This document shows positions 24,994 to 39,295 of a stretch of 46,590 bases of DNA, piece after piece. Positions within the stretch are counted from its first letter, which is position 1; each line of letters opens with the position of its first letter. Under the pieces are notes generated by a model. The model searched no databases. It was given only the letters and a program-made list of their open reading frames with translations, and was not told the origin of the DNA. The stretch comes from an uncultured Candidatus Peribacteria bacterium (GTDB lineage: Bacteria > Patescibacteriota > Gracilibacteria > UBA4473). Location of the stretch: positions 1-46,590 of the forward strand of contig CAYFMH010000002.1 of NCBI GenBank assembly GCA_964344165.1, given 5' to 3'. The position numbers and the translations under genes are program-made.

Positions 24994-26991
24994 ATGGCAA
25001 AAGTTGCACTTCAAAAAATCAGAATCACGGGATACAAAAAACACTACAAGATCCTCATGCAGGAACTACATCGATCTGGGGTCGTAGAGATTATAGAAAA
25101 TTCAGAACTGGTTCAGCAGTCAGAAACCGAAGTAGATCAGCACTTTGGAGTTTTTGACCTGGCGAGAGTTGATTTTGCGATTCATTTTCTCTCAGAATAC
25201 GCTCCCAAGGGATCAAAAATTGATAATATTTTGTCTGGGGGTAAGCTCGTGCTCTCGGAAGAAGAGGCCAAAAATCGGCTCCAGGAATTTGCTCCAAAAT
25301 CAGAAAAGCTCATCACTGAATGTGAGCGATGCGAAGAAGAGCTTGTCAAATCAAAGAATGAATTGGCCAAAATCCCAGAAAAACGAGAATTACTGGGCAA
25401 GCTTGGTAAATTTAATCTTCCGGTGCAGGCTGATTATTCGACTCAGTTTACCAAAACCTGGGTGGGAGCGATCAAATTGGTCGATGAGCCCGCGTTTTTG
25501 TCGGAGGTTTCTCGAGAATCCAACTTGTTGGACCTGCAGATCCTCTCCCGGGGCAAAAAACAAACCTACATTCGGTTGACCGTGCTCAAAGAACTCGAAT
25601 CCCCAACGGCCAAATTACTCGAAAAATTTCAGTTTGAATCGCTTGATCTCTTGTCTCAGTTGGCTGATTTTATCGAAAAAACTCCGATGGAGATCGAGGC
25701 AGAACTAGAAAAAATAGAAGCTCGACTTCGGGCTCGGATCGTAACCCTTGAAAAAAAGGCTCGAGAACTCGCAGAGAACCTTGATGAATTCCGAATTCTT
25801 TATGACTATAACCATTGGCGAAAAGTAAAAAATGACCTGCAGTATCAAGTTTTCCGATCACCACATCTTTTTGCTTTTGAGGGATGGATTCCGGAGGCGG
25901 AGTATGCCAAGCTCGAAAAATGGCTGCAGAATGCTTTTGTCGGAGAAGCGATTATCGAAAAAATAGCCCTCAAAAAAGGGGAAGAGGCCCCGGTTTTACT
26001 CAAAAATATGAAAGGGGTTTCTTCTTTTGAACCAATCATTGGGATGTTTGGAGTGCCAAAGATCAAGGAGTTTGATCCGACGATTTTTATGGCGCCATTT
26101 TTTATGGTCTTTTTTGGACTTTGTCTGTCTGATGTGGGATACGGAGGAATTTTGACACTTTTTGCCGCGTGGTTACTTGTTTTTGGGAAATTTTCAAAAG
26201 CTGCGAAAAATGCTTTATTTTTACTTTTTATTTGTGGGATCGCAGCGATTTTGGGAGGCGTTGTTTTGGGTGGGTATTTTGGTCTTACGACTGAGCAAGC
26301 GCCTGTTTTTCTTCTCAACGAAGCCGGAGCCTTCCGCGGACAGTTACTTGATCCGATGGTGGGGACGGGGCCCGTTCTCTTCCTAGGAATCGCTCTGGGA
26401 CTCGGGTTGATCCAGCTTTTTTTGGGGCTTATTTTGGACTTCGTCAAAAGAGTGATGAATCGAGAATACATCGATGCGGTATGTGATCCAGGAGCGTGGT
26501 TTTTCTTTCTGGCTACGTTGGTGCTTTATGGAGGGGCTGATTACATCGGGATTTCTAAGGATTTGGCTGGGAAATTAGCGCTTGCTGGGGCTGGAATTTT
26601 AGTTCTCACCCAGGGACGAGATCAAAAAAACTGGCTACTCAAACCGGTCTTTGGAATTCTTGGGCTCTACAACATCACGTCATATCTCTCTGATCTGCTC
26701 AGTTATTCACGTATCATGGCGCTGGGGCTGGCCACGGGAGTGGTTGGATTTGCAATGAATATTACCGCAGGGATTTTGGCAGACATGATCACGATTCCAG
26801 TAGTGGGGACGTTGGTCGCTATTTTTGTGATCCTCTTTGGACACACGCTCAATTTTTGCCTCTCGATATTGGGGGCCTTCATCCACTCTGGTCGTCTACA
26901 ATTTATTGAGTTTTTTGGAAAGTTTTATGAAGGAGGAGGACGAGAATTTCGTCCATTTAAGCGGGCGATGAAGTATTTGCATTTTGAATAA
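24994..26991 (+). CDS. ntpI: V/A-type ATPase subunit I (a-subunit, membrane stator)
   Basis: 665 aa. N-terminal cytoplasmic coiled-coil domain. C-terminal polytopic domain with YSRIMALGLATGVV and RLQFIEFFGKFYEGGGREFRPF. Confidence 0.88.
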   Translation: MAKVALQKIRITGYKKHYKILMQELHRSGVVEIIENSELVQQSETEVDQHFGVFDLARVDFAIHFLSEYAPKGSKIDNILSGGKLVLSEEEAKNRLQEFAPKSEKLITECERCEEELVKSKNELAKIPEKRELLGKLGKFNLPVQADYSTQFTKTWVGAIKLVDEPAFLSEVSRESNLLDLQILSRGKKQTYIRLTVLKELESPTAKLLEKFQFESLDLLSQLADFIEKTPMEIEAELEKIEARLRARIVTLEKKARELAENLDEFRILYDYNHWRKVKNDLQYQVFRSPHLFAFEGWIPEAEYAKLEKWLQNAFVGEAIIEKIALKKGEEAPVLLKNMKGVSSFEPIIGMFGVPKIKEFDPTIFMAPFFMVFFGLCLSDVGYGGILTLFAAWLLVFGKFSKAAKNALFLLFICGIAAILGGVVLGGYFGLTTEQAPVFLLNEAGAFRGQLLDPMVGTGPVLFLGIALGLGLIQLFLGLILDFVKRVMNREYIDAVCDPGAWFFFLATLVLYGGADYIGISKDLAGKLALAGAGILVLTQGRDQKNWLLKPVFGILGLYNITSYLSDLLSYSRIMALGLATGVVGFAMNITAGILADMITIPVVGTLVAIFVILFGHTLNFCLSILGAFIHSGRLQFIEFFGKFYEGGGREFRPFKRAMKYLHFE

Positions 26992-27024
26992 GGGATTGGA
27001 AAAAACTTAAAAAAACAGAATTTT

Positions 27025-27066
27025 ATCCCGAGTCCTCGGGATGAAATTCTGGAAGGATCCGCCTTC
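27025..27066. repeat. Copy B of the intergenic palindromic repeat family
   Basis: atcccgagtcctcgggatgaaattctgg-aaggatccgccttc. The core atcccgag/ctcgggat is a perfect inverted repeat. Confidence 0.6.
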
Positions 27067-27119
27067 GTTAGTTTCTAAAACTAATTCCAAACTTCAGTCT
27101 ACGTTAGTTTCACAAACTA
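27066..27119. repeat. Pair of 18-nt direct repeats
   Basis: cgttagtttctaaaacta (27066-27083) and cgttagtttcacaaacta (27102-27119), 16/18 identical, starts 36 nt apart. Confidence 0.7.
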
Positions 27120-27164
27120 CGACAGACAGGATGGCGGACAAGGGAGCAGACAAAGCTTAGTGAA

Positions 27165-27186
27165 ATCCCGAAATCTCGGGATGAAA
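27165..27186. repeat. Copy C of the palindromic repeat core
   Basis: atcccgaaatctcgggatgaaa is 19/22 identical to copy B. It is followed by a perfect hairpin, cgtcgtc-tgc-gacgacg, abutting the tRNA 5' end. Confidence 0.6.
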
Positions 27187-27209
27187 CGTGCGTCGTCTGC
27201 GACGACGTC

Positions 27210-27299
27210 GGAGAGATGGCGGAGTGGTCGAACGCGCACGCTTGGAAAGCGTGTGTACGGGCAACCGTACCGAGGGTTCAAATCCCTCTCTCTCCGCCA
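27210..27299 (+). tRNA. tRNA-Ser (anticodon GGA), CCA encoded
   Basis: Acceptor stem GGAGAGA/TCTCTCC. Anticodon stem cacgc/gcgtg with loop TTGGAAA. Long variable arm gtacgg-gcaa-ccgtac. T arm gaggg-ttcaaat-ccctc. Discriminator G plus CCA. Confidence 0.95.
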
Positions 27300-27344
27300 A
27301 GTGGTGCACGAATGGCACCTGATTCTCACTCACTTAGGGGAGTT

Positions 27345-27380
27345 GAACAGGTGGATTTTTGGCCTGTTCGAATTTGTTTG
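27345..27380 (+). terminator. Hairpin plus T-rich tail downstream of tRNA-Ser
   Basis: gaacagg-tggatttttgg-cctgttc (perfect 7-bp stem) followed by gaatttgtttg. Confidence 0.45.
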
Positions 27381-27462
27381 AGGCTTTTGTTGATTGATAT
27401 TGGATTCTGAAGGGTTCGAATCCTACACACTTATGACAGTTGTGCACTAAGAGCAATCTTTG

Positions 27463-29817
27463 CTATTGGTATTTTCTCCTCAATTTTTCCATATCTTCTT
27501 CGTGTCTTTTCTCTTCTATTTCAACGTTTTGCTCTAAATATTTTCGATACTCGCTTACAAATTCTTTCTCTTTTTTATCTTTCAAGTTCCAACTATCTAC
27601 GTCTTCATCCAAGGTTTTTATCTTGGCTCGATATGCATTTGCCGTAATAGCTTCGCCAACACTTCCTGAAACCATTCCAGTATTCCCAAGGAAACACTTA
27701 CAATGCGTCCATATTTTTTTGTTTTTTGGGAGTTTTTTTACAGTTCGAATTACAAGTTTTTTTAGCATACCTCCCTGATACCATTGAAATATTGGAGCTA
27801 TATACTTATTCCATTTAGCTATACTTCCTTCGTCAATCACCTCATTCATTTTCTCTTCTAAATATCCTTCGGTGAGTCCAGGGTAAAGTGCATGAAGGAG
27901 TATGGCGGCTTTCCAGTTGCTTTTCTTGTTAAACCACAGCCAAATAGCATCAACTATTTCTTTTTCTTTTTCCTTTGCTATATCAAATAAATGTGATGGG
28001 CGGGTTGGAATTGCAGAGTACTTCCAGTTTTCTTTTCTTTTTCTCTCTTCTCTCTGGATTCTTTTACCAAAAAATTCAACTAACTTTTGTGGATAGTTAG
28101 AGGTTAAGATTTTTAGCACATATTCTTCGTGGTAATTAATGTCATCTATTTCGAGGAATCCCTTTAAAATAATATCCCATTCTTTTTCGTTCAGTGTATT
28201 AAAGATAGTCTTTGTATCTTTTTCTCCATAAAACCAGTTAGCCCACCCATAAAAATTTATCTTTGTTAGTTCTTTGATGAGCTCCAGAAAGAATTCTTTT
28301 TCTTCTAAGTTCTCAAATCCAATGGTTAGCAATAAATTGTATAGTACATCTTTTTTTTCTTTAGGATCTCTTCTTGTTTTTATCTTAGAAAACAGGGATT
28401 TGGCTGTTGATATTTCAATTAATGGGTTTCTTCGTAAGGCATAAGCGATTGATAACAAGTTTTTACCTTTTGAAATCCATTGGTTGATGATCTTTTCTGC
28501 CTCCTTTCTTTTGTTTGATTCGAATAATCCGGCAATTAAGACACCAATAAATTCCTTTAGCCTGTTTACTTCTAGAAGCTTTAGAGCAAGATCAGGTTTT
28601 TTCTTTCCAATTAGTTTCAATAGTTCATTAAAATAATAGAACTTTCCAATATCACTCAGCGTCTTCTGGGTTTCAGCAAATGCAATAATTCTATTTTTCC
28701 ACTTTGATTCAGTAGCTTCCTTTATGGATTTTAAATATTCATACACCTTTTCTTTTCTAAACTCTTCTGTTTCTCCAAATTCTAAATCTTTTCTAAATTT
28801 TCGATCATATCCTACTAGGACTCTATATATTTGATATTCCTTATTAGCTTTTAAAAGCTTCCAAAAAACCTTAAATTCTTCTATATTGTCCTCCTGAAAC
28901 TGGTTTTCTCCCCATGTGACTTTATCTTCTAACTCAGAAAGAATTTCGAACTGAGCATTTGGGATAACTTTTTCATTATAGAACTTTAAGATTGATTTAG
29001 TGTTTTCTTTTACTAGATCCCTCATATCACCTCCATGCTGAGAATCATAGGTTGCGGCATTTAGTGTTTGGATAACAACTATTTGGTCAGCTGGATTTGT
29101 TAACTGTAAGTAAAGTTTTTTGAGAAAGTTAATAGCTTCTTCTCGAATATTCTTTATTTCGTCATCAGCTTTTAAACCACCACTATGAAAAGTAACGGTT
29201 TGGAAGTCCCTCCATGTAGCTCCTTCAAAATCGGGACTTAAAATACTTTTCAATCCTGTACTTAGAAAAATAAGATATTTTTCATTTTTACTTTTTGACC
29301 AGGCTTTTATAGAGTTTAAAAATTTATTTTGAGGTAAAAATCTAATTTTATTTAGTGCCTGAAAGTCATATTTACAAAATTGCCCCACTATTTCTAGTGA
29401 CTTTTCTCTTACAACAGAGCTTTCATGATTTGAGTATCGAGCTAATAACTCGATAACTTCTTCTGATTCTAGATATTTAATTTGTCCTAATAATTCTACA
29501 CATTTAACAAGTACTTCTTCATGAGTTTTGCCGGGGATAGGGCCAAATTGAGTAATCTGGTCTTTAGTAGGGATAGAATCGCTTAAGTAAATTTTCTCAA
29601 TCATAACTAGAGCCTCTTTTGAAATGGGATAGATAAATAAGCTTAATTCCTCCAGTTTTTCTAATAATTCATCATTATCTTTGAACTTTTCATTTTTTAA
29701 TTTATCTAAATCCTCTTGTAACTCTTTTAGAAAAAATTTACGGATTTCTTCGTTACCTTCTATGTAGTAACTGTCTGAAAGTCTTTGTAAAAATATCTTT
29801 TTTTGTTCAGTTCCCAT
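27463..29817 (-). CDS. Hypothetical 784-aa all-alpha (HEAT/ARM-like repeat) protein
   Basis: The ATG overlaps the stop of the upstream gene by 11 nt. K/E/L-rich helical repeats, with one HEAT-like unit (ELLARYSNHESSVVREKSLEIVGQF). A weak HKD-like string, HCKCFLGNTGMVSGS, lies at nt 27661-27705. A 60-nt sample at 28501-28560 has 20/60 G+C. Confidence 0.75.
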   Translation of the reverse strand: MGTEQKKIFLQRLSDSYYIEGNEEIRKFFLKELQEDLDKLKNEKFKDNDELLEKLEELSLFIYPISKEALVMIEKIYLSDSIPTKDQITQFGPIPGKTHEEVLVKCVELLGQIKYLESEEVIELLARYSNHESSVVREKSLEIVGQFCKYDFQALNKIRFLPQNKFLNSIKAWSKSKNEKYLIFLSTGLKSILSPDFEGATWRDFQTVTFHSGGLKADDEIKNIREEAINFLKKLYLQLTNPADQIVVIQTLNAATYDSQHGGDMRDLVKENTKSILKFYNEKVIPNAQFEILSELEDKVTWGENQFQEDNIEEFKVFWKLLKANKEYQIYRVLVGYDRKFRKDLEFGETEEFRKEKVYEYLKSIKEATESKWKNRIIAFAETQKTLSDIGKFYYFNELLKLIGKKKPDLALKLLEVNRLKEFIGVLIAGLFESNKRKEAEKIINQWISKGKNLLSIAYALRRNPLIEISTAKSLFSKIKTRRDPKEKKDVLYNLLLTIGFENLEEKEFFLELIKELTKINFYGWANWFYGEKDTKTIFNTLNEKEWDIILKGFLEIDDINYHEEYVLKILTSNYPQKLVEFFGKRIQREERKRKENWKYSAIPTRPSHLFDIAKEKEKEIVDAIWLWFNKKSNWKAAILLHALYPGLTEGYLEEKMNEVIDEGSIAKWNKYIAPIFQWYQGGMLKKLVIRTVKKLPKNKKIWTHCKCFLGNTGMVSGSVGEAITANAYRAKIKTLDEDVDSWNLKDKKEKEFVSEYRKYLEQNVEIEEKRHEEDMEKLRRKYQ

Positions 29818-30679
29818 TTAAAATTTGGTTAGTAATTTCTTCAAGAGAAAGTTTTTTCTGTTTCACTAGGAAATTTATTTTCTCTCTTCCAAGCTTTTCA
29901 TCTTTGAAAAATATTAATTCTCCTTTCTGTATAAGTATTTTTTGTTTTATTAGTTCGTCTAATAATACTTTTTCTTTTTCTAGAGTGATGTTTAAAAAAT
30001 TCCTTATGCGACTTCTTAAAGATTCATTTTTTAAATCTAAAGGAGAAAGGAGAAATAGGATTACTTCAAACAACCATAAAGTTTCTTCTAAGTAAGAAGA
30101 AATTTTAGAAATAATTTTTTTATTTTGTTCCAATTTTTCTGAATTATTATTTTCTGAAGATTGGGGAAGTGATTCAATGCTTTCTCTAAATTTTTTTTCT
30201 TTGTCTAATCGAACTTTTCGAACAGCTCTAGGGATTTCCACTAAACACTTTGTAGTAAAGCTTTCGTTTTCATTTGATTCTTCATATTCAAAGAACTGTA
30301 GTACTTCTCCTAGCCTTTCTATCACCAAAGTTCTTCCTTCACAAGAACTATTTGGGACAAAGCCAATTACAGGTTTCCCTTGTGAAATTAATTCTTTTAT
30401 AAGGTCTAATTCGTGAGAAAACCCATTTCGTCCTCTCTCACTTTCAATAATTATTACAATTAATGAAGCCTCTCGAATTGCAGAGTCGAGAACTTCTTCT
30501 TGAAAGGCGAGATGAATACCATCAATTAAGGTGTCACAATCTCTCGGAAGCAAGTGGATCCCTAGATCAACAACAGACTTTTCTATCGACTCCCTTAATT
30601 CCTCCTTTATTTTTTTAGATTTCTTCCGTGCATCCTTTGGGCGTGCAATAAAGATTGAAAAAATATTATCTTCAGACAT
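29807..30679 (-). CDS. Hypothetical 290-aa protein with an N-terminal nucleoside 2-deoxyribosyltransferase/TIR-like Rossmannoid domain and a possible C-terminal wHTH
   Basis: IFSIFIARP...AIREASLIVIIIESERGRNGFSHELDLIKELISQGKPVIGFV matches the NDT-like pattern (YxAGP ... D.GTxxElGyA..xGKPVi). The C-terminal region LDELIKQKILIQKGELIFF resembles a winged helix. Confidence 0.6.
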   Translation of the reverse strand: MSEDNIFSIFIARPKDARKKSKKIKEELRESIEKSVVDLGIHLLPRDCDTLIDGIHLAFQEEVLDSAIREASLIVIIIESERGRNGFSHELDLIKELISQGKPVIGFVPNSSCEGRTLVIERLGEVLQFFEYEESNENESFTTKCLVEIPRAVRKVRLDKEKKFRESIESLPQSSENNNSEKLEQNKKIISKISSYLEETLWLFEVILFLLSPLDLKNESLRSRIRNFLNITLEKEKVLLDELIKQKILIQKGELIFFKDEKLGREKINFLVKQKKLSLEEITNQILNGN

Positions 30680-30786
30680 ATCTTAAAGTTGTTTGGCAGT
30701 TTAAACAATAGAGTGCTAATATCAATTGTCAAAAAAGATCATAAAATTAATAACAAACCAGTCTCTGTCACTTTAGAATTTTAGTC

Positions 30787-31050
30787 TCAAAGCATTCGGA
30801 TTATTTTCTTAATATGCTTCTTCCCAAAAAACTTCCTAAACTCTTCTGGATAAACTCGTTTAAATTCACACAACACCCCCTTCAAAAATACTTGTCTTCG
30901 TTTCAAATCCTCCCCAAACTCTTCTTCAAACTTCAGGAATTCCTCTCGTTCCTTCAGAAGCTCTCGAATCAACGCCTCTCTTGGAATCCGGTGGAGATTT
31001 ATCGGCCGATTCAAAATAGCCGACTGCCAATTCTCAACGTCTACATTCAT
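30787..31050 (-). CDS. Hypothetical 87-aa protein downstream of the recombinase
   Basis: The ATG at 31050 overlaps the recombinase 3' end by 17 nt. No motif recognised. Confidence 0.4.
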   Translation of the reverse strand: MNVDVENWQSAILNRPINLHRIPREALIRELLKEREEFLKFEEEFGEDLKRRQVFLKGVLCEFKRVYPEEFRKFFGKKHIKKIIRML

Positions 31051-32332
31051 TTGAAATAGGGTTATTATTACCAATATAAATTTCTCCCCCTTGTAAAAAA
31101 AGGGTTTCTTTGAGACAGGATAGAATTTCTCGTTTTTCTGGTTTCGATCCGTTTTTCAGAATATCTTCGATATATTCTTTTGAAGTGAACTCTCTAGCAT
31201 TTCCACCAGATAATTGTTTTTGGATTCGGTTCATTTTTTCTACTTCGTGCAGAATACTTTTTTGCAATCGAAAATGGTTATCCTTGAACTGATCTACGAT
31301 CTCAGAAATCGAAATAATCAACTTTTCTTCTCGGATATATTTCTCATTGCATCGTCTAGTCCCTCCGTACTTATTGCACTTGTAGTACACATACAATTTT
31401 CCATGTCGGTTGATATGTTCGGCTCCACTAACCCCTGATCCACAAGTTCCGCACTTGAATAATCGACTAAAATAAAACTCCTTCCTACCCCATTTTCCTT
31501 TCTCTGAAGTTTTGAGGTTTTCTTGAGCAAGATCAAAGATCTCTTTGCTAATAATTGGTTTGTGTGAACCTTGATAATATGCCCCTCCATAAAGAAACTC
31601 TCCATAATAGAAGGGCTCTTTGAGTAGCCGATAAACCATGCTGAGACTGAGTTGTTTTCCGCTTAGTGATCGGAAGCCTTCATCTGTGAGATACTCATGT
31701 ACTTGTCTGCCACTGAGATTTTCTTTAGCTACGTATTCAAACGCACGTTTAATAAACGGAGCTCGTTCTTCATCTATCTCAATTTGACTTGGCTCATTGA
31801 AGTTTTGGCTTCGGATAAGTTTATATCCTAAAGGAGTCCTTCCTGGACGAGCTCCTTTTTCGCATTTAGCTCTGAGTCCTCGTTTTACGTTCTTGGCTCG
31901 ATTATCATTCTCTAACTTTGCTTGAGAGCAGAGGATCATGAGGAGAAATTTCTCATCTGGTGTGTTCGTAAAAGTTTGTCCACTGGTTTGTATTTGCTGC
32001 AGAATTCCTTGATCCATGAGATCTACTAAACGTCCTAGATCTCCTGCATTTCTACTCAACCGATCTGGGGCCCAAGTAAGAATAGCATTGAATCGTCCTT
32101 CGTTTAGCCCTTGCAAGACCTGATTATAGCCAGTTCTCAAGCCTGATTCTTTAGCAGATTTACTTTCTTTGATTGTTTCAACAATCTTTATGCCTTCCTT
32201 TTCTGCTAACTTGGTCATCTCATTGAGCTGAGACTCAATGGACAATGCCTGCCGTTCATCCGCTTCGCTGGATTTACGAGCATATAAGCAGTAACGAAGA
32301 GGTTCTTCTGATGTTAGCAATGATTTTTCCAT
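31034..32332 (-). CDS. Large serine recombinase (resolvase domain + recombinase domain + zinc ribbon)
   Basis: Catalytic N-terminus YCLYARKSSEADERQALSIESQ, SRNAGDLGRL, a recombinase domain, and C-terminal CGTCGS...YYKC. An alternative GTG start lies at 32431. Confidence 0.9.
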   Translation of the reverse strand: MEKSLLTSEEPLRYCLYARKSSEADERQALSIESQLNEMTKLAEKEGIKIVETIKESKSAKESGLRTGYNQVLQGLNEGRFNAILTWAPDRLSRNAGDLGRLVDLMDQGILQQIQTSGQTFTNTPDEKFLLMILCSQAKLENDNRAKNVKRGLRAKCEKGARPGRTPLGYKLIRSQNFNEPSQIEIDEERAPFIKRAFEYVAKENLSGRQVHEYLTDEGFRSLSGKQLSLSMVYRLLKEPFYYGEFLYGGAYYQGSHKPIISKEIFDLAQENLKTSEKGKWGRKEFYFSRLFKCGTCGSGVSGAEHINRHGKLYVYYKCNKYGGTRRCNEKYIREEKLIISISEIVDQFKDNHFRLQKSILHEVEKMNRIQKQLSGGNAREFTSKEYIEDILKNGSKPEKREILSCLKETLFLQGGEIYIGNNNPISNECRR

Positions 32333-32585
32333 TACCCTAATAGATGCCGAAGAAAGTGGCTTAGTCCAGGCTTTTTTCACCAAAAAACTCTCAAAAAAGC
32401 TTTTCTTTTTAGGGAAGTTAGTTACATTCACCTTGCGACCTTTTTCCGGTATCGAAATATTATCCTCTGGGAAACTTTTTTGTTTTCAGAGATAGCCAAA
32501 AAAGACGGGGCAATTAACCGTCCTTTACGGCTATCCGAGAGGAAAACTGGAAAAGGGTCGCAACGGATTAGTTGCCCCATTTTTT

Positions 32586-33797
32586 ATGAAAAATAACTCA
32601 AACACTCTCGGCACAAAACTCAGTTGGATATTCGGAATAATATTTTCTCTAGGAAGCCTTGGTAGTTTTTCTGAGGATCCGCTCTTAGCTACTTTCTTAC
32701 TCCTTATCGGCCTTTTCCTCATTCCGCCTATCACTACATTGATAGAGATAGAAACAGGAAAGAATCTTTCGGGAAAGAGAAAGTTGGTTATTACGATTGT
32801 TGCACTTTTTGTTTTCGGAATGCTTGCTGGTCCACAGGAAGAAACAAAAACACAAATTCAATCGACTGATTCAAAACAGGAAGAGAGGAACCTTCATAAA
32901 AAATCAGTTCCTCTTCCTAAATCAGAACCTATTAAACCGAACTCCGCTAAAAAAGAGGTAATAGAAAGTACTGTCTCATCAACCAGTAGTTCCATTCCCG
33001 TTCAACCAAAGAAAAATGTCATAGAAGAAAAAGCAGAGCCAAAAGTTGTAGTACAACCAGAAACTCCATTGAAAATTTCAGAACCAACAGGAATCCCCGT
33101 CCTAAAAATCGTAGACGGAGACACCATAGATGTCCTATACCAAGGAAAAGAAGAACGACTCAGAATAAAGGGAATAAATACCCCAGAAACCAAAGATCCA
33201 CGATATCCCGTTCAGTGTTTTGGGAAAGAAGCCAGTGCAAAAGCAAAAGAAATACTGGAAGGGAAGAATATTATGTTAGAGACAGATGGAAGCCGAGGAA
33301 AATACGGTCGTTTGTTAGCTTATTTACGCCTCCTGAACGGTAAAGATTACGGAGAAAAAATGATCCGAGAGGGATACGCCTGGCATTATCGTTCGTATTC
33401 TCATGAACGAATGGATGCCTATGATGAAGCAGAAAAATATGCTCGAGAAAACAATGCTGGCCTCTGGGCTTCTTCTACCTGTAATGGAGAAAAGAAACCA
33501 GTAAAGGAAGTAGTTGAAGAAACAAAGAAATCTGTTTCTAAAGTCATTTTGCCTCCGCCCGCTCCTCAACAAAAAGTCGAGCCAGAACCTGTTCCAGTGC
33601 CAGCTCAACCATCTGTTCAGCAAGAGTTTCAGGAAAGTATACCTTCCTATGAATGTTCACGAGATGCTTACAACTGTGGAGATTTCAAAAGGCATAGTGA
33701 AGCTCAGCAAATTTTTGAATACTGCTTTTCTACAGCAGGAGACATCCATAAACTAGATCGAGATAATAATGGTGTAGCCTGTGAATCACTCCCTTAA
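32586..33797 (+). CDS. Membrane-anchored thermonuclease (SNase) with a C-terminal Excalibur Ca-binding domain
   Basis: Three N-terminal hydrophobic segments and a low-complexity linker. SNase motifs VLKIVDGDTIDV..RLRIKGINTPE..YGRLLAYL. Excalibur motif CGDFKRHSEAQQIFEY..DRDNNGVACESL. Confidence 0.88.
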   Translation: MKNNSNTLGTKLSWIFGIIFSLGSLGSFSEDPLLATFLLLIGLFLIPPITTLIEIETGKNLSGKRKLVITIVALFVFGMLAGPQEETKTQIQSTDSKQEERNLHKKSVPLPKSEPIKPNSAKKEVIESTVSSTSSSIPVQPKKNVIEEKAEPKVVVQPETPLKISEPTGIPVLKIVDGDTIDVLYQGKEERLRIKGINTPETKDPRYPVQCFGKEASAKAKEILEGKNIMLETDGSRGKYGRLLAYLRLLNGKDYGEKMIREGYAWHYRSYSHERMDAYDEAEKYARENNAGLWASSTCNGEKKPVKEVVEETKKSVSKVILPPPAPQQKVEPEPVPVPAQPSVQQEFQESIPSYECSRDAYNCGDFKRHSEAQQIFEYCFSTAGDIHKLDRDNNGVACESLP

Positions 33798-33805
33798 TTT
33801 TATTT

Positions 33806-35356
33806 CTAAAATTTAGGGTAACGATGCTCAAAACCTGAGATAAATTCTTCAAAAGAACAACTTTGTGGGTATGAAGGCCCATCATCTATTGGTATATATG
33901 CAAAATAGGGCTCCCTTTCAGACATAATTTGATTAATGGCAATCGTTAAAGCATCGACTAGGTCATCATGCTTCTCAACTCCAAATCCCATTATTTGTTC
34001 AATAAGTTTTTCACACCCTTTTTTAGGGAATAAAACCTGTCCACTTTTTATATAGTGGTGAGTGGTACACAAGCGAGATCTCTTATCTCCAACAATAGAA
34101 ACTGGTTTTGTTAGGTATCCGTCTCGAGACATCTCTTGTTCAAATGATAGTTGGTATCCTACATTTTCAGTATAGAGTCTTACTGATTTAGGGTGATCAT
34201 AAATGATTGAAGCCAGAGCTTTGAGTCGTTCTTTTGATCCAGAAAAATCAGGCTTCCCACAGAATAAGTGTGGCAGTACATAAATCTTTTTCTTTTTCCC
34301 AATTTTATAAACCTTGAGAGGTACAAAGGCTGTATAATCAGCAGAATCTTTCTGAGAAATCGCTAAATCAGTACCAATAGCCGCAAATTTAAAATAAACA
34401 CTATTTTCTGAGTTCTCATCATGATTCTCTTCGGGGAGATCTTCATAATAGTGAATATCTCCCGGGTGAACAATTTGTCCTTCGTCAGGAACAATTCTCA
34501 GCATGAATTCTCGTTGCCAGGCTATATGATTCCCAACTCTCTTTTCTTCATCCTTGAGAGCTTTTTTGTTGGGATATTTCCCCGGCCATAAAGCTTTGTT
34601 ATTTCTCGTAATTGGATACGCTTTGTATTTACCACTCATCTCTTTTTTTCTGATTTTTTCTTTTATCCGCATGATCACAGAATCTTCATGAAGTAAATTT
34701 CCAATCATTATTAATCGGGTATTTTGATCTCCTGCAGGGATTACTTCACTCGTGAGCCAATCGTAAGTTTTATTTCTTCCTTCTGCTGTCTTAATGGTAT
34801 TCAGATCCTCAATATCATCACAGATAATGAGATCGGGACGATGCTGATTGTGCCTAATCCCCCGAACACTCTGCTCCATGGACACGGCCATAATACGTGC
34901 ATCGTGTTTGGGAATAAGGAGAGAAGAAGTACTCCACTCATCATCTTCTTTAAACGGACCAAGATCCTTTCGCAAAAGCTCATTAGACTCTAGTTCTCGT
35001 TTCAGATTCTTGAGGTGTTGCCGGGCCTGATGCAGGGTTTGACCTACGAGGAGTACGAATTTTTTTTGAGGCTTTCCAAGAATCGCCCAAAGTGGATAAG
35101 ATAAATTCACAATCGTTGATTTCCCCGATCCTCGAAAAGCAATAACCACCAAATTCTTTATCCTTTCATCTTCCGTGAGCTGAAAAATTTCCCGCTGAAA
35201 AGCAGCTGTTTGATAAGTGATGTAATGATGAAAATACGTGTGAAAGAACCAATAATGACTCTGGCTGGTTATTTCTTGGCGGATTTGGTAGTCCGTTAAG
35301 ACTTTTTCAAGGGTTTCCGGATCTAATTCGGGAATGTTATGCATTCTTTTGTTCAT
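33806..35356 (-). CDS. Phage terminase large subunit
   Basis: Walker A AFRGSGKST, Walker B LIICDDIED, C-terminal nuclease-type region. Preceded by a small-terminase-like gene. Confidence 0.85.
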   Translation of the reverse strand: MNKRMHNIPELDPETLEKVLTDYQIRQEITSQSHYWFFHTYFHHYITYQTAAFQREIFQLTEDERIKNLVVIAFRGSGKSTIVNLSYPLWAILGKPQKKFVLLVGQTLHQARQHLKNLKRELESNELLRKDLGPFKEDDEWSTSSLLIPKHDARIMAVSMEQSVRGIRHNQHRPDLIICDDIEDLNTIKTAEGRNKTYDWLTSEVIPAGDQNTRLIMIGNLLHEDSVIMRIKEKIRKKEMSGKYKAYPITRNNKALWPGKYPNKKALKDEEKRVGNHIAWQREFMLRIVPDEGQIVHPGDIHYYEDLPEENHDENSENSVYFKFAAIGTDLAISQKDSADYTAFVPLKVYKIGKKKKIYVLPHLFCGKPDFSGSKERLKALASIIYDHPKSVRLYTENVGYQLSFEQEMSRDGYLTKPVSIVGDKRSRLCTTHHYIKSGQVLFPKKGCEKLIEQIMGFGVEKHDDLVDALTIAINQIMSEREPYFAYIPIDDGPSYPQSCSFEEFISGFEHRYPKF

Positions 35357-35376
35357 GGTAAATAAAGGGTTAAAAA

Positions 35377-35772
35377 TTATTTTTTAGGAGGTAGCAAGGA
35401 ACCAAGAGAAAGAGCTTTAGTGACCATTTCTCTTTGTTCATCCGTAAGTTCTCGATCTTCTATTTTAGTCGTGACTTCAAACTTCTGTGTGTAGGACTTG
35501 TGACGGTGTTTGAGCCAAAAGATAATAGCTGTCAGGTTTTGATCTTTAATGGCGGACAACAGTTGCGATTCTGCCATATCGTTCATGAGGGAAACGCCTT
35601 CTTGTAGGGCTTCATCAGCCTCTTTTGCAAATTTATTATCCTCTTTTCGCCACCGATAATAGGTTGCTCGTCCAAGACCTGTTTTTTCACAGGCGAGTTG
35701 TATGATGGGCGTTTTCTTGAGTTGATTACATAAGGCCTCTTTTTGCTGTTGTTGTTTTTCTTCTAAAGTCAT
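35377..35772 (-). CDS. Terminase small subunit-like HTH protein (phBC6A51-type)
   Basis: GLGRATYYRWRKEDNKFAKEADEA and AIIFWLKHRHKSY. Its position directly upstream of terL supports the call. Confidence 0.65.
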   Translation of the reverse strand: MTLEEKQQQQKEALCNQLKKTPIIQLACEKTGLGRATYYRWRKEDNKFAKEADEALQEGVSLMNDMAESQLLSAIKDQNLTAIIFWLKHRHKSYTQKFEVTTKIEDRELTDEQREMVTKALSLGSLLPPKK

Positions 35773-36539
35773 GATGTAGAGGGGTTAAGAAGTACAGATT
35801 TTTGTCCGGTCAGTTTTTCCCAACGATCAATAATAACCTGACAGTATTTGGGCTCGATTTCTATCATGCGACACTTCCTCTTGGTTTGTTCACACGCCAA
35901 TAAGCATGATCCAGATCCTCCAAAACAGTCGTAGACAATATCTCCTCGACGAGTGCTATTGAGAATGAGGCGACGTAAAATAGATACTGGTTTGGTGGTT
36001 GGATGATGGATATTTTTCTTAATCTTTGGACTGATCAAAACAGACTTGTCCTGAGACTTCAGAAATTCATGCCGTCCTCGCCAACCATAAGCGATAAGTT
36101 CGTGTTGTGGCAGGTAATCCAATCGTCCGATGACCGCTCCTGTTTTGATCCACACCAGGAGTTGCGAGAGTTTGAATCCTTCCTCCACAAAAGCCTCTCG
36201 CATGGCAAACATCATCCGATCAGAATTAAATACCGCGAAGGCGTTCTTATCGGTTAGGCGATATTTGATTGGTTTGAGCCAGCCTTGAGTGAACTTTTTA
36301 AATTCTTCATCAGATTGGAAGTGATCGTTTTGGATGTGATCATGCTGAAGGCTAGATTTAGAAAATCCTTTTTTCCCTTCGATCAAATCAACTCCGTAGG
36401 GAACATCGGTGCAGATAAATTTTATTTTCTCATCCTCAAGAAGCTGCTGAACATGCTCTTTATTGCAGGCATCACCGCAAATAAGTTTATGCTCTCCGAG
36501 TTGGAAAACATCACCGAGGTTAATCAATCTTTTTGACAT
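35769..36539 (-). CDS. DNA methyltransferase (N6-A/N4-C, beta class)
   Basis: Motif IV TDVPYG comes before motif I FGGSGS. GDVFQLGEHKLICGDA N-terminus. 4-nt overlap with the downstream gene. Confidence 0.88.
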   Translation of the reverse strand: MSKRLINLGDVFQLGEHKLICGDACNKEHVQQLLEDEKIKFICTDVPYGVDLIEGKKGFSKSSLQHDHIQNDHFQSDEEFKKFTQGWLKPIKYRLTDKNAFAVFNSDRMMFAMREAFVEEGFKLSQLLVWIKTGAVIGRLDYLPQHELIAYGWRGRHEFLKSQDKSVLISPKIKKNIHHPTTKPVSILRRLILNSTRRGDIVYDCFGGSGSCLLACEQTKRKCRMIEIEPKYCQVIIDRWEKLTGQKSVLLNPSTS

Positions 36540-37812
36540 CGTATTTTGGGTTAAGAGCTAAATAACGGGCGATGATAACATCACAAAAAGCAGGATCCTT
36601 TTCGATTAGGAAAGCTCTCCTGCCAAGTTGATCACAACTAATCAAAGTACTGCCTGATCCTCCGAAGAGATCAAGGATGGAATCTCCCGGCTTGGTGCAG
36701 CGTTTGAGTGGTCGTTCGTGCAATTTGCAGGGTTTTTGCGTGGGATGGGCGTACTCTGTGGTGGGCAATCTTTTTACAAGCCAGATATCGAGAAAATCTT
36801 CGATATCATCGAGCGTTCTATTGCCTGTGCCAACTTCTGTATTGAGGATTTCTGTAAAGTTGGACGATTTGTCATTCAAATACGGTTTTCCAATGGTTCC
36901 GTACACACAGGGTTCGTAACATTTGTTGAAGGCTATTTGAGGCGTAACATTTTGGTTGTTTTTGATCCACAAACATACTCTTTGATTTTTGATACCGTTT
37001 TTTTGGTAGAGCGACTGTAGAAGTCCAATGTAGTTTTGATCACAAAAGTAAAAAATATGGGCATCCTTTTTGCAGTGAGCCAGTACATTCTGGATTGTCT
37101 TTTCTAAAAACATCCGATACTCCAAGTCGGTTTTGTTATCGTCTACTTGTTGGGAGGCATAATTTTTCGTGCCACCTAGTCCCTTTTTGTAGTCCAGCGA
37201 AATGTTAAACGGCGGATCTGAATACACCATATCAATCTTTGTTTCTCCGAGCAGCGGTTTTATCATGGCTGGATCTGTCGAATCTCCACAAATCAGTCTG
37301 TGTTTTCCAAGCTGAAATATTTCTCCTGTTTTGGTTTGTGGGTTTTTCTGAGCTTTCTCGAGTTCTTTCTTGGTATTGAATTGATCATCCTCGATTTCTA
37401 GAGCATCATCCCAAATAGTTGAAAGATCAGAATCATCAAATCCGACATCGAGCAGTAACTCTGTGTCGAACTGTTTGAGAAGTTCAAAATTCCAGTCTCC
37501 GGTGTTACGGTTGAGACGAAGGTTGAGTTCTTTTTCTTTCTCAAGATCTGGAATGTTGAGATATACCACGGGAACTTCTTTGTGTCCCAGATCTTTTGCA
37601 ATTTTGAGCCGGAAGTGTCCGCCGATAACGATGTTTTTTCGTGCTTTCGCACCATTCACGAGAATGGGATCAACCAATCCAAAGCGTTGCATGCTTTCCG
37701 TGAGTTGATCAATAGCTTCTTGATTCCATTTTCTTGGGTTGTAGGGAGCGGAGTTCAGTTCATTAATCGGAACTGACACGATTTTTAACGATGCCGGTTG
37801 TTGAGTGTTCAT
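36520..37812 (-). CDS. ParB-like nuclease domain fused to a DNA methyltransferase
   Basis: N-terminal ParB/Srx motif (YNPRKW..GGHFRLKIAKDLG). GEIFQLGKHRLICGDS. Motif IV SDPPFN, motif I FGGSGST. Confidence 0.88.
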   Translation of the reverse strand: MNTQQPASLKIVSVPINELNSAPYNPRKWNQEAIDQLTESMQRFGLVDPILVNGAKARKNIVIGGHFRLKIAKDLGHKEVPVVYLNIPDLEKEKELNLRLNRNTGDWNFELLKQFDTELLLDVGFDDSDLSTIWDDALEIEDDQFNTKKELEKAQKNPQTKTGEIFQLGKHRLICGDSTDPAMIKPLLGETKIDMVYSDPPFNISLDYKKGLGGTKNYASQQVDDNKTDLEYRMFLEKTIQNVLAHCKKDAHIFYFCDQNYIGLLQSLYQKNGIKNQRVCLWIKNNQNVTPQIAFNKCYEPCVYGTIGKPYLNDKSSNFTEILNTEVGTGNRTLDDIEDFLDIWLVKRLPTTEYAHPTQKPCKLHERPLKRCTKPGDSILDLFGGSGSTLISCDQLGRRAFLIEKDPAFCDVIIARYLALNPKYDVKKID

Positions 37813-37879
37813 ACCCCCATTATCAAAAACCTCAGGGACACCAGAGGGACAAATGGGGGGATTTCAGGGACAAATAGTC

Positions 37880-38506
37880 CTAAATGAGAACCTCAATCCG
37901 TTCTTCTGCCCACTTAAAAACAGGTCGTCTTAAAAGTGGTTTAGCTTTCCAGTTGATTCTTTTTATCACTTGTTTGAGGCGTTCTGAATCAGACAAAAAT
38001 TGCCCATAAATAGCTATTTCTACTGTTTCTCGTGAGAAAACTTTTACTGTTGGGTCTTGAAATAAGTAAGCACAAATAGTTTTTTCCATTGGGCTAAGTT
38101 GTATTTCCCCTTCGGGAAAAACTAAACTCATTGTTTTCCAATTAAAGTAGTTTTCATTCTCCTCTTTGATTTCTTTTCTTCCCTTAAGAATCCTAGCAAA
38201 AAATACTTGATCCGTAGGATGCATTGGTTTTTGGTAATAAGTTTCTACAGGTCTGTGAAATAAAACTTCCTCACTATGACAGTCTTCAAGAGTGACCTTT
38301 GACGAAGTATTATCGAGAAAGGATTTTATATCAGGAAGCGTATTGTAAAAATTAGGGAGGGATAATTGCTGGTTTATGACCTTGCACACATTGGCCACAC
38401 CCTTTAAATCAGGCAAAGAAAGCGAAACAGGTCTTGCTACTGCTTGAAGAGCTTTGGCTTGTTTGGGAGAGATTTTTCGGAAGCGTCTTTTGGTGGAGGT
38501 GGTCAT
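37880..38506 (-). CDS. Hypothetical protein with a C-terminal OmpR/PhoB-type winged-helix-like segment
   Basis: LSPMEKTICAYLFQDPTVKVFSRETVEIAIYG resembles trans_reg_C (LTpkEfeLL..L....g.v.sRe.L....wg). An alternative GTG start lies at 38521. Confidence 0.5.
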   Translation of the reverse strand: MTTSTKRRFRKISPKQAKALQAVARPVSLSLPDLKGVANVCKVINQQLSLPNFYNTLPDIKSFLDNTSSKVTLEDCHSEEVLFHRPVETYYQKPMHPTDQVFFARILKGRKEIKEENENYFNWKTMSLVFPEGEIQLSPMEKTICAYLFQDPTVKVFSRETVEIAIYGQFLSDSERLKQVIKRINWKAKPLLRRPVFKWAEERIEVLI

Positions 38507-38629
38507 AATTTCTTGTGGCACAATATTTAGATGTTTACCCTTAATGAATATACTACATATTGATTCTAAAATTACAATACCTCAAAAAAATTGAGAAAGA
38601 TTTACTTATTTTAAGAATTGAAACTGCTT

Positions 38630-39166
38630 TTAAGAACTTTTTTTCTTCTTTTTTGGTGGTGGATCTTGTCGTAATACACATGCAAGCCTAATACTAGGTC
38701 CTCCAGTTGGTTCTTCTTTTGGAGGCTCTCCTCCTAAATTTTTTGCACATCTCAACATTGCATCTGCAACCGTTTTAAACATCTTTACTTGCCCTGGAAC
38801 TTCTGAGTCATTTCGGAAATAAGTACTTGTAAAGCTGGTGCAACGATTAAGAGCACGAGGATGGCAATTTTTCGCTCCGATACACAAACATCGATCTAAT
38901 CTTCGACGAGTTCGAAGCAACCCATCATTTGGATCTAATATCCCCTCTAATTCAGGGATTTCTCTGTCTATAATCCGTCCGAGAGTTCTTAATACACGAC
39001 AAGATACAGGGTTTTCCGGTTTAGGACCAAATGGCTCTTGGTCCAAATCAGGTTGGACCTTATCTGCTAGAGCATGGAAAGTATCTTCATCAACCTGTGT
39101 TATGGCCATAGCACGAATATGTCGCTCTATTGCAACAGTTTTTTCGATGTCTTTACTTGGACTCAT
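38630..39166 (-). CDS. Hypothetical Cys-rich protein (178 aa) with a poly-Lys tail
   Basis: ATG ORF with 8 Cys, including CLCIGAKNCHPRALNRC, and a C-terminal PPPKKKKKSS. Divergent from the 1095-aa gene. Confidence 0.55.
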   Translation of the reverse strand: MSPSKDIEKTVAIERHIRAMAITQVDEDTFHALADKVQPDLDQEPFGPKPENPVSCRVLRTLGRIIDREIPELEGILDPNDGLLRTRRRLDRCLCIGAKNCHPRALNRCTSFTSTYFRNDSEVPGQVKMFKTVADAMLRCAKNLGGEPPKEEPTGGPSIRLACVLRQDPPPKKKKKSS

Positions 39167-39235
39167 AATGTAGAGGGGGTGAAATGTATTTTTACCTATT
39201 GGTTAATTGTTTTTTGCAAAAAGTCAATGAAAAAC

Positions 39236-39264
39236 TTGACTTATCTATATTTTTTGTTTATAAG
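39236..39264 (+). promoter_or_regulatory. Sigma70-like promoter for the 39296-45290 operon
   Basis: TTGACT (39236-39241), 17-nt spacer, TATAAG (39259-39264), 32 nt upstream of the ATG. Confidence 0.4.
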
Positions 39265-39295
39265 TTGGTCGTAATTATTTAAAAATTTTTTTTAA

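Follow-up and report, generated by a model that had tools for sequence, protein, structure and literature searches.

We describe two overlapping genes on the minus strand of a 46,590-nucleotide stretch of DNA from an uncultured Candidatus Peribacteria bacterium; this whole stretch is called the window. The two genes, here termed gene 1 and gene 2, probably form one abortive-infection or defence module, the terminal cargo of a prophage-like element. We demonstrate that the pair is a conserved unit, the halves of which are fused in some lineages, and that known immune or toxin domains freely replace one another at its effector position. The proposed role in abortive infection is based on the strict pairing or fusion, the exchange of domains at one position, a dedicated adaptor, the patchy and mobile spread of the family and its defence-rich neighbourhoods. 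The module consists of the following parts:

29807..30679, minus strand: gene 1, the effector-plus-adaptor protein, an open reading frame (ORF) of 290 amino acids (aa)

30275..30679, minus strand: N-domain of gene 1, aa 1 to ~135, an orphan alpha/beta domain and presumed effector (alignment with the homologue P0007, structure models)

29810..30154, minus strand: C-terminal adaptor of gene 1, aa ~176-290, probably a winged helix (seed hidden Markov model (HMM) and alignment)

27463..29817, minus strand: gene 2, a large helical-repeat protein and presumed sensor or scaffold, an ORF of 784 aa

29807..29817, minus strand: overlap of the gene 1 stop and the gene 2 start, 11 nt, ATGggaacTGA (sequence)

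29290..29523, minus strand: ARM/HEAT-like repeat unit(s) of gene 2, aa ~99-176 (weak profile matches)

27655..27690, minus strand: glycine-rich loop of gene 2, L710-x-x-T-G-V-V-[ST]-G718-E-x-G721 (conservation in 32 sequences)

Gene 1 and gene 2 are real genes and not chance ORFs, because relatives exist for both: more than 50 for gene 2 and, for gene 1, one full-length relative and many that share the adaptor domain only. Homologues support both gene starts, since their N-termini agree and the 11-nt overlap recurs (L016). An initial annotation of the DNA had already described the two ORFs with these lengths, coordinates, strand and overlap, and every peptide string quoted there is present in the translations. 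At the junction, aaATGggaacTGA, the genes have 11 nt in common, which we read as a sign of translational coupling.

Every relative of gene 2 with an intact 5' side either has an upstream partner of 220-400 aa that abuts or overlaps it, or carries an N-terminal fusion of 150-264 aa. A scripted census gave a partner of 318-400 aa that ends a few nt from, or overlaps, the start of the large ORF, and otherwise an extension of 150-264 aa. On the contigs of the four closest relatives a gene of 296-371 aa lies immediately upstream and in most cases overlaps the start. By the called starts, the two-gene loci have overlaps of 1-14 nt or gaps of at most 5 nt, with the single exception of a 46-nt gap (L002). 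Downstream of P0007 lies a gene 2 homologue (48% identity, E 3e-72), again with an overlap of 11 nt. The TIR_2 protein P0011 precedes an 815-aa ORF with a 14-nt overlap, and this ORF aligns with the gene-2 profile over 735 columns (hhalign probability 100%, E 1.7e-67). Behind P0014 an ORF of at least 329 aa overlaps it, and one of at least 755 aa abuts P0015; these two ORFs, cut short by the contig end or lacking DNA, may also be gene-2-like. Single proteins of 1065-1086 aa combine DUF4365, the adaptor and a gene-2-like region (P0008-P0010), and in records from Legionella, Asgard archaea and Methanosarcinales RelA_SpoT is fused directly onto the helical protein. The window pair agrees with the definition of the family, a helical protein 750-815 aa long whose effector-bearing partner abuts it, overlaps it or is fused N-terminally. 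Since homologues of both genes are adjacent and overlapping, or fused, in all loci with an intact 5' side, the earlier suggestion that gene 1 and gene 2 are expressed as one unit appears well supported.

The identity of the partner varies greatly. We scanned 45 partners or N-terminal extensions against Pfam at a threshold of E≤1e-3, with these results:

RelA_SpoT: 13 of 45

DUF4365: 12 of 45

PIN_12: 7 of 45

SIR2_2: 2 of 45

With local clustering the PD-(D/E)xK group grows to 18, and the window N-domain clusters with that of L016 alone. The RelA_SpoT cases are fusions in 12 instances and a separate partner gene in one. Searched exhaustively with HMMER, 1.84 billion representatives contained a single full-length homologue of gene 1, P0007, with 34% identity; further proteins shared only the C-terminal ~110 residues of gene 1. 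According to Pfam, the proteins sharing this adaptor include TIR_2 plus adaptor (P0011, E 6e-10; P0014) and HNH plus adaptor (P0012, P0015). In PADLOC, the SIR2 partner matched ThsA (E 1e-28) as well as LmuA and Dsr1, the restriction endonuclease-like (REase) partner matched an Argonaute-associated REase and RelA_SpoT matched PDC-S33. The closest relative of gene 2 is P0003 with 49% identity, and its partner keeps the adaptor of gene 1, to which it is 32% identical overall, while its N-domain is a different one with a weak match to a Pol-beta nucleotidyltransferase (NTase)-like motif. Effectors are therefore exchanged on a short evolutionary scale.

Additional observations were made on the partners of individual subtypes. 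At L056 3947-5008, a chimeric partner has a truncated FAD_binding_4 domain (Pfam E 1e-33) in place of PD-(D/E)xK with the adaptor intact, which may represent a decayed system or an artefact of assembly or recombination. All three contigs of the TIR_2 type carry a 65-aa gene for an XRE-family helix-turn-helix (HTH) protein ahead of the pair (L066 1533-1730, L067 237-434, L068 147-344). This suggests a transcriptional control of the TIR_2 subtype; no equivalent was seen in the window. In the DUF4365-type subclade with a 746-aa large protein, a 243-aa gene lies directly upstream of the partner (L003 8324-9055, L005 1294-2025, L010 6321-7052). It is annotated as HARE-HTH in L003 and L005 and may be a third component limited to that subclade. 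On plasmid pC6.5d of Rhizobium rhizogenes, a 1310-aa fusion annotated as 'poly-gamma-glutamate hydrolase family protein' (L021 5945-9877) comprises a RelA_SpoT-like region (PADLOC PDC-S33, E 6e-11), a gene-2-like region and extra C-terminal sequence, and it adjoins a 1108-aa SIR2 family protein.

The adaptor is the part of gene 1 that recurs most widely. A seed HMM built from the C-termini of gene 1, P0007 and L001 matched TIR_2, HNH and fused DUF4365 proteins as well as those with an unassigned N-domain at E 1e-13 to 1e-27, and the DUF4365 partners of the 746-aa class at E 1e-4 to 3e-3. A second variant of the adaptor occurs in PIN_12, SIR2 and canonical DUF4365 partners, which match each other with an hhalign probability of 96-97%; its relation to the first variant is collinear and weak (E 9e-4, probability 23%). 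The initial annotation had seen a winged-helix-like segment at this end of the protein. Matches to winged helix-turn-helix (wHTH) families do recur among various members (FNR, TrmB, HTH_Crp_2, MCM_C wHTH, POLR3C_WHD, ScpB, MarR and CRP; E 0.02-0.3), but all of them are sub-threshold and no significant wHTH match was obtained, a 14-sequence profile included. A winged-helix fold of the adaptor is plausible on these grounds. The RelA_SpoT fusions are devoid of the adaptor, which fits a non-covalent tether that becomes dispensable after fusion of the effector.

Gene 2 belongs to a family that appears to have escaped description so far. Neither gene 1 nor gene 2 had a significant model match in Pfam, NCBIfam, PHROG or PADLOC, and sequence searches of the PDB with the window proteins were empty. 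A word-indexed search found four relatives of gene 2 that align end to end with 26-49% identity. Pattern scans added six genomic loci (Saccharibacteria, Legionella parisiensis, a gammaproteobacterium, an alphaproteobacterium, and metagenome-assembled genomes of Promethearchaeota and Methanosarcinales), 42 metagenomic loci and one IMG/VR provirus. Five plasmid matches were obtained by tblastn (Legionella adelaidensis, Pseudanabaena, Sphingobium, Rhizobium rhizogenes and Aulosira). The family thus comprises ~55 loci in bacteria, archaea and plasmids, with a gene-2-like protein of 750-815 aa, and its distribution is patchy: Saccharibacteria, Legionella, Alpha- and Gammaproteobacteria, cyanobacteria, Asgard archaea and Methanosarcinales. 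Such sporadic occurrence over distant phyla and plasmids does not agree with a common housekeeping scaffold, a possibility raised in the initial annotation. No relative of gene 2 was present in 50,697 phage records, and IMG/VR contained one contig only, a provirus (L064) from the same sample as L006.

An alignment of gene 2 with 31 relatives shows conservation over the whole length. The HEAT-like unit that had been noticed before finds weak support, as aa 99-150 match Pfam HEAT and HEAT_2 and the 32-sequence profile matches the designed ARM-repeat protein 4rzp at aa 110-174 (E 3.6e-4), but the HEAT matches are sub-threshold (E 0.04-0.07) and one or two units only are covered by the ARM match. 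The most conserved element of the family is the glycine-rich loop near the C-terminus, in which G718 and G721 are invariant in the 32 sequences and L710, G714 and V716 are conserved to at least 94%. It could be a loop that contacts a ligand or the effector. This loop is overlapped by a string previously taken for an HKD/HKN-like motif (HCKCFLGNTGMVSGS, aa 705-719, nt 27661-27705). We reject a phospholipase D-type HKD motif at this site: of the 32 relatives, 10 keep H705 and a single one keeps K707.

According to our model, gene 2 would act as sensor and scaffold, being an ARM/HEAT-like helical protein of ~780 aa, the N-terminal alpha/beta domain of gene 1 would be a toxic enzyme and the probably winged-helical adaptor would tether this effector to gene 2. 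Without infection, the helical protein would keep the effector inactive. Once an infection cue, probably a protein encoded by the phage, binds to the solenoid, the effector would be released or activated and would arrest the infected cell. In this model we infer the sensing role of gene 2, by analogy with described systems, and the docking role of the adaptor.

The closest analogues are DSR2, Vulcan and CapRel. In DSR2 (defence-associated sirtuin 2) of Bacillus subtilis, SIR2, HTH, helix bundle, HEAT and C-terminal domain (CTD) follow each other, and the protein is activated by a phage tail tube protein bound in helical cavities (PMC11263360). Our module resembles it in the presumed order of parts, that is, an NADase-type effector, an HTH of ~100 aa, a long helical or HEAT region and a phage-binding CTD, as these features are given for DSR2 (PMC11263360). 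The sister locus L060 even has SIR2 plus adaptor followed by a 788-aa relative of gene 2, and abortive infection on direct binding of a phage protein is likely the common logic. However, DSR2 is one protein of 1005 aa with a fixed SIR2, whereas the window module consists of two overlapping genes, has no SIR2 and belongs to a family with exchanged effectors. The SIR2 domain of L060 is moreover nearer to ThsA than to DSR2. The sequences do not support DSR2 membership: at E≤10 none of the DSR2 chains of the PDB matched the gene-2 profile, and the PADLOC Dsr2 model gave no match. Vulcan, a fusion of a NIR (DUF4062) NADase to C-terminal HEAT repeats that sense a small lambda protein, depletes NAD+ on activation and arrests growth (bioRxiv 10.64898/2026.09.04.749371). 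Its TIR/NDT-like Rossmannoid effector (NDT, nucleoside 2-deoxyribosyltransferase) has a catalytic Glu near residue 100, and E90 of gene 1 is at a comparable position. Vulcan differs in being a single polypeptide, its comparison with gene 2 being one by description only, and gene 1 has no DUF4062 match and, by eye, no DUF4062 E-Y motif. Membership in the DSR2 or Vulcan family is therefore not supported, by sequence for DSR2 and by description for Vulcan.

A further relation exists to CapRel, in which a RelA/SpoT toxin is joined to a C-terminal sensor that binds a phage capsid protein (PMC9712102). Thirteen relatives in our family (12 fused, 1 separate) have RelA_SpoT ahead of a large sensor region. 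The CapRel sensor, however, is small and antitoxin-like compared to the ~780-aa helical protein, the window copy is without RelA_SpoT and the RelA_SpoT N-domains of the relatives match PADLOC PDC-S33 rather than a named system.

In Lamassu, LmuB is an SMC-like core and its partner LmuA swaps the N-terminal effector (SIR2, nucleases and others) while the docking region stays constant. The principle of a conserved large core and a partner with swappable effector is thus shared, and the L060 partner matches the SIR2-type LmuA model (E 9e-16). The helical core described here differs by having no ATPase or SMC signature and no match to the LmuB or LmuC models. PADLOC matches to OloA of Olokun were found in two gene-2 relatives (P0006, E 1.6e-5; P0004, E 5.9e-5). 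They are weak, fall in inconsistent regions of both protein and model and are absent in the window protein and five other relatives, so that Olokun membership was rejected; generic helical-repeat similarity is the most likely explanation. For the helical component of seven other loci PADLOC gave no match, or weak and inconsistent ones to OloA and PDC-M61A only.

Several points weigh against a function in abortive infection. The sensor role of gene 2 is assigned by analogy and no sequence similarity to the helical region of DSR2 was found, while the repeat matches behind the solenoid architecture are weak. The N-domain of gene 1 has one homologue among ~15 billion proteins and is without a profile or confident structural match, the structure models of gene 1 being poor (pLDDT, predicted local distance difference test, ~50). 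The association with defence islands is anecdotal, with ~8 annotated contexts and no statistical enrichment behind it. Moreover, a pure toxin-antitoxin (TA) or addiction role would produce an identical genomic picture. Such a module, with gene 1 as toxin and gene 2 as a large antitoxin, would mainly stabilise the prophage-like element instead of sensing phages. PIN, RelA/SpoT and HNH are classic TA toxins, the overlap couples the two genes tightly and the module is found on mobile elements and plasmids with other TA pairs alongside. The fused forms also recall fused TA systems such as CapRel (PMC9712102). Nevertheless, we consider an addiction module unlikely. An antitoxin of 750-815 aa that is conserved end to end and encoded downstream of its toxin would be atypical, and control through an unstable, separately degraded antitoxin is impossible where covalent fusion is common, as it is here (12 of the 13 RelA_SpoT cases, several DUF4365). 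SIR2 and TIR effectors and the restriction-modification (RM) or Upx neighbours indicate immunity. Since fused TA systems of the CapRel type are themselves phage sensors, this explanation largely merges with that of an abortive-infection module.

What the abortive-infection module of the window would use as effector depends on the N-domain of gene 1. The initial annotation had assigned it to the NDT/TIR/SLOG class, which we could not establish. It had no Pfam match even at E≤10 (P0007 is likewise without a TIR match), in particular none to PF05014, PF13271 (DUF4062) or the Peptidase_C14 and CHAT profiles. A profile search of the PDB gave chance T4 lysozyme matches as the best ones, hhalign against bona fide TIR_2 partners yielded a probability of 0.1% and HMM scores were inside the range of shuffled sequences. 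A word-indexed search with gene 1 returned only gene 1 itself, to which a two-sequence profile added nothing. At family level the idea is correct in so far as genuine TIR_2 and SIR2 domains fill this position in sister loci, but for the window copy itself it is a weak hint only. The glutamates of IIIESE, previously highlighted, are not conserved in P0007, the only homologue. The residues kept there include D16, R46-D47, G86-F-x-H89-E90 and C113-E-G-R116. At the HELD site the window has H-E-L-D and P0007 H-E-F-E, compared to E-Y in DUF4062, a class that has Q/W/E motifs as well.

Structure prediction with AF2 gave a beta-alpha-beta layout both for full-length gene 1 as single sequence (model 1, pLDDT 49) and for the N-domain with P0007 (model 2, pLDDT 52). 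Foldseek returned no match at E≤0.001 with either model. NDT, DNPH1, YtoQ and ThsB were on top for the low-confidence model 1 (E 0.06-0.5). With model 2, of similarly low confidence, caspase-6 came first (E 4e-3, probability 0.99, template modelling (TM) score 0.43), followed by formyltransferases, ThsB, NDTs, KaiC and flavodoxins; the NDT, DNPH1 and YtoQ matches recur here at E 0.014-0.05. The matches to these low-confidence models also included ThsB and the TIR domain of MyD88 (E 0.01-1.4, TM <0.45). NDT and ThsB folds are listed for both models, none of them significantly, and caspase-6 leads for the second. With a pLDDT of ~50 and two models that differ in their top class, these results are hints only. 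A three-layer alpha/beta (Rossmannoid) domain is a reasonable description of the predicted fold, and at least two readings of it are candidates; for one of these, NDT/TIR, the models give a weak hint.

By eye, the succession ASLIVIIIE...GFSHELDLI...GKPVIGFV resembles core motifs of TIR as well as NDT proteins, with E90 at the position of the catalytic Glu. MAFFT also places E90 opposite the Glu of the TIR_2 partners in an alignment that is not significant. A TIR/NDT-like N-glycosidase using E90 is our leading guess. A caspase-like cysteine protease of clan CD with His89 and Cys113, which would cause death through proteolysis, for instance by switching on another toxin, appears clearly improbable. 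The caspase-6 chains are the best Foldseek matches of the domain-only model, and His89 and Cys113 (C-E-G-R) are kept in P0007 in the His-then-Cys order of clan CD. Yet that model is of low confidence with nothing at E≤0.001, the first model preferred NDT, DNPH1 and ThsB, and the Peptidase_C14 and CHAT profiles did not match. The catalytic His of caspases sits directly at the end of a strand, whereas His89 lies ~10 residues past its strand, and two sequences with 27% identity are too few to single out catalytic residues.

It is very unlikely that gene 1 encodes a DNA-binding regulator of the winged-helix type, in which a Rossmannoid sensor domain binds a ligand, and gene 2 a structural or scaffold protein of the prophage, with no toxic effector involved: the weak wHTH matches (FNR-type E 0.03; MarR, CRP and TrmB E 0.02-0.3), the N-domain without a catalytic family and the small XRE regulator ahead of TIR-type loci would agree with it, but the adaptor sits on bona fide enzymes (TIR_2, HNH and PD-(D/E)xK; SIR2 via the second variant) and is fused in cis, as expected for a docking module rather than a repressor, the RelA_SpoT fusions keep the helical protein without any adaptor and the absence of gene 2 relatives from the phage records argues against a virion or structural role.

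The genomic surroundings of the relatives are in line with a module of abortive infection. L003 has Fic, a complete type I RM system and a HARE-HTH gene as neighbours, L002 an EcoRI-type methylase and a GmrSD/HNH enzyme, and L006 two integrases, DUF5677 and a Upx-like protein, this region being also the IMG/VR provirus L064. On plasmids, integrase and Toprim genes, RelE/ParE and VapBC pairs, insertion sequence (IS) elements and a large SIR2 family protein are found nearby. A defence or mobile setting, as the initial annotation had proposed, is supported for the window as well as for the relatives. In two unrelated loci a DUF5677 gene lies directly downstream of the gene-2-like ORF (L006 12501-13145; L070 3685-5291). 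It is accompanied by DUF6602 in L070 and may be an accessory gene or part of a neighbouring system.

In the window, the module is flanked by these features:

27210-27299, plus strand: tRNA-Ser(GGA), host-side flank

30705..30732, minus strand: match to a sigma-70-like promoter, TTGACA-16-TATTGT, at a distance of 26 nt from the start of gene 1 on its upstream side

30787-31074: 95-aa ORF upstream of gene 1, no family match

31034..32431, minus strand: large serine recombinase of 465 aa (Resolvase, Recombinase and Zn_ribbon_recom), where the prophage-like element begins

The promoter is a consensus match only, as matches of this kind are not enriched versus shuffled sequence. An intrinsic terminator was not found downstream of gene 2 on the minus strand, and the tRNA was the sole match in an Rfam scan. 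Past the recombinase, the element encodes a probably secreted SNase, the large subunit of a terminase and a pair of N6/N4 DNA methylases, of which one is a fusion with ParB_N. It is because of this gene content that we call the element prophage-like. The module is so its last cargo, beside tRNA-Ser. The tRNA call and the recombinase domains agree with the position that had been claimed for the module, and the edge of an integrated element is apparent from the tRNA on one side and the recombinase with prophage-like genes on the other. A search of 26900-46590 for direct repeats of the att type that would bound the element gave none, and the contig probably ends before the element does. With a GC content of 0.316 (0.22 and 0.27 at third codon positions, GC3), the module has the lowest GC of any 3.2-kb stretch in the window, compared to 0.424 on the tRNA-proximal host side and 0.385 in the rest of the element. 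Its AT-richness had been recognised before, and the G+C counts given for it (20/60 at 28501-28560, 29/60 at 4501-4560) are exact.

Further features of the element and its border may be of interest. Between recombinase and terminase, a gene at 32586-33797 (plus strand) specifies a protein of 403 aa that starts with a hydrophobic segment, continues with an SNase (thermonuclease) domain and has an Excalibur calcium-binding domain at its C-terminus; it looks like a secreted or membrane-anchored nuclease. The methylase genes at 36520-37812 and 35769-36539 (both minus strand) overlap, one being the ParB_N-N6_N4_Mtase fusion, and such a paired arrangement is typical for anti-restriction or self-protection methylases of phages. 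Two adjacent large ORFs of 1095 aa (39296-42583, plus strand) and 893 aa (42609-45290, plus strand) have no Pfam match at E≤1e-3 and an unusually low GC3 of ~0.25; they may be more cargo or structural proteins of an unusual kind. Two copies of a 22-nt palindrome (ATCCCGAGTCCTCGGGATGAAA / ATCCCGAAATCTCGGGATGAAA) lie 140 nt apart (27025-27046 and 27165-27186) between the gene for V-ATPase subunit I and tRNA-Ser; this may be a REP-like element or a terminator hairpin.

The earlier statement that no named system has this architecture agrees with our results: neither window protein matched any model of PADLOC-DB v2.0.0 at E≤1, and we found no description of it in the openly searchable literature. 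The design principle is already known, but the family, the adaptor and above all the orphan effector of the window appear to be new. A more far-reaching view would be that the gene-2 family is an unrecognised pan-prokaryotic pattern-recognition scaffold that takes at least eight effector types by means of the adaptor, and that the window effector is a new class other than TIR, NDT or caspase with a new toxic chemistry; we regard this as rather unlikely.

If confirmed, these findings would add a defence family of unusually clean modular build, in which a large helical sensor and a small adaptor are combined with any of at least eight exchangeable effectors, namely TIR, SIR2, PIN, PD-(D/E)xK, HNH, RelA/SpoT, NTase-like and the orphan domain of the window. 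The family ranges over bacteria, including those of the candidate phyla radiation (CPR), and archaea, including Asgard archaea. The members seen so far are labelled 'hypothetical protein' or named after the effector alone, so that their annotation would gain as well. Split and fused forms represent a natural experiment on the control of effectors by a sensor, and the adaptor could serve as a portable docking module. Given that its N-domain has but a single homologue among all the proteins searched, the window copy is the most informative one with regard to new effector chemistry.

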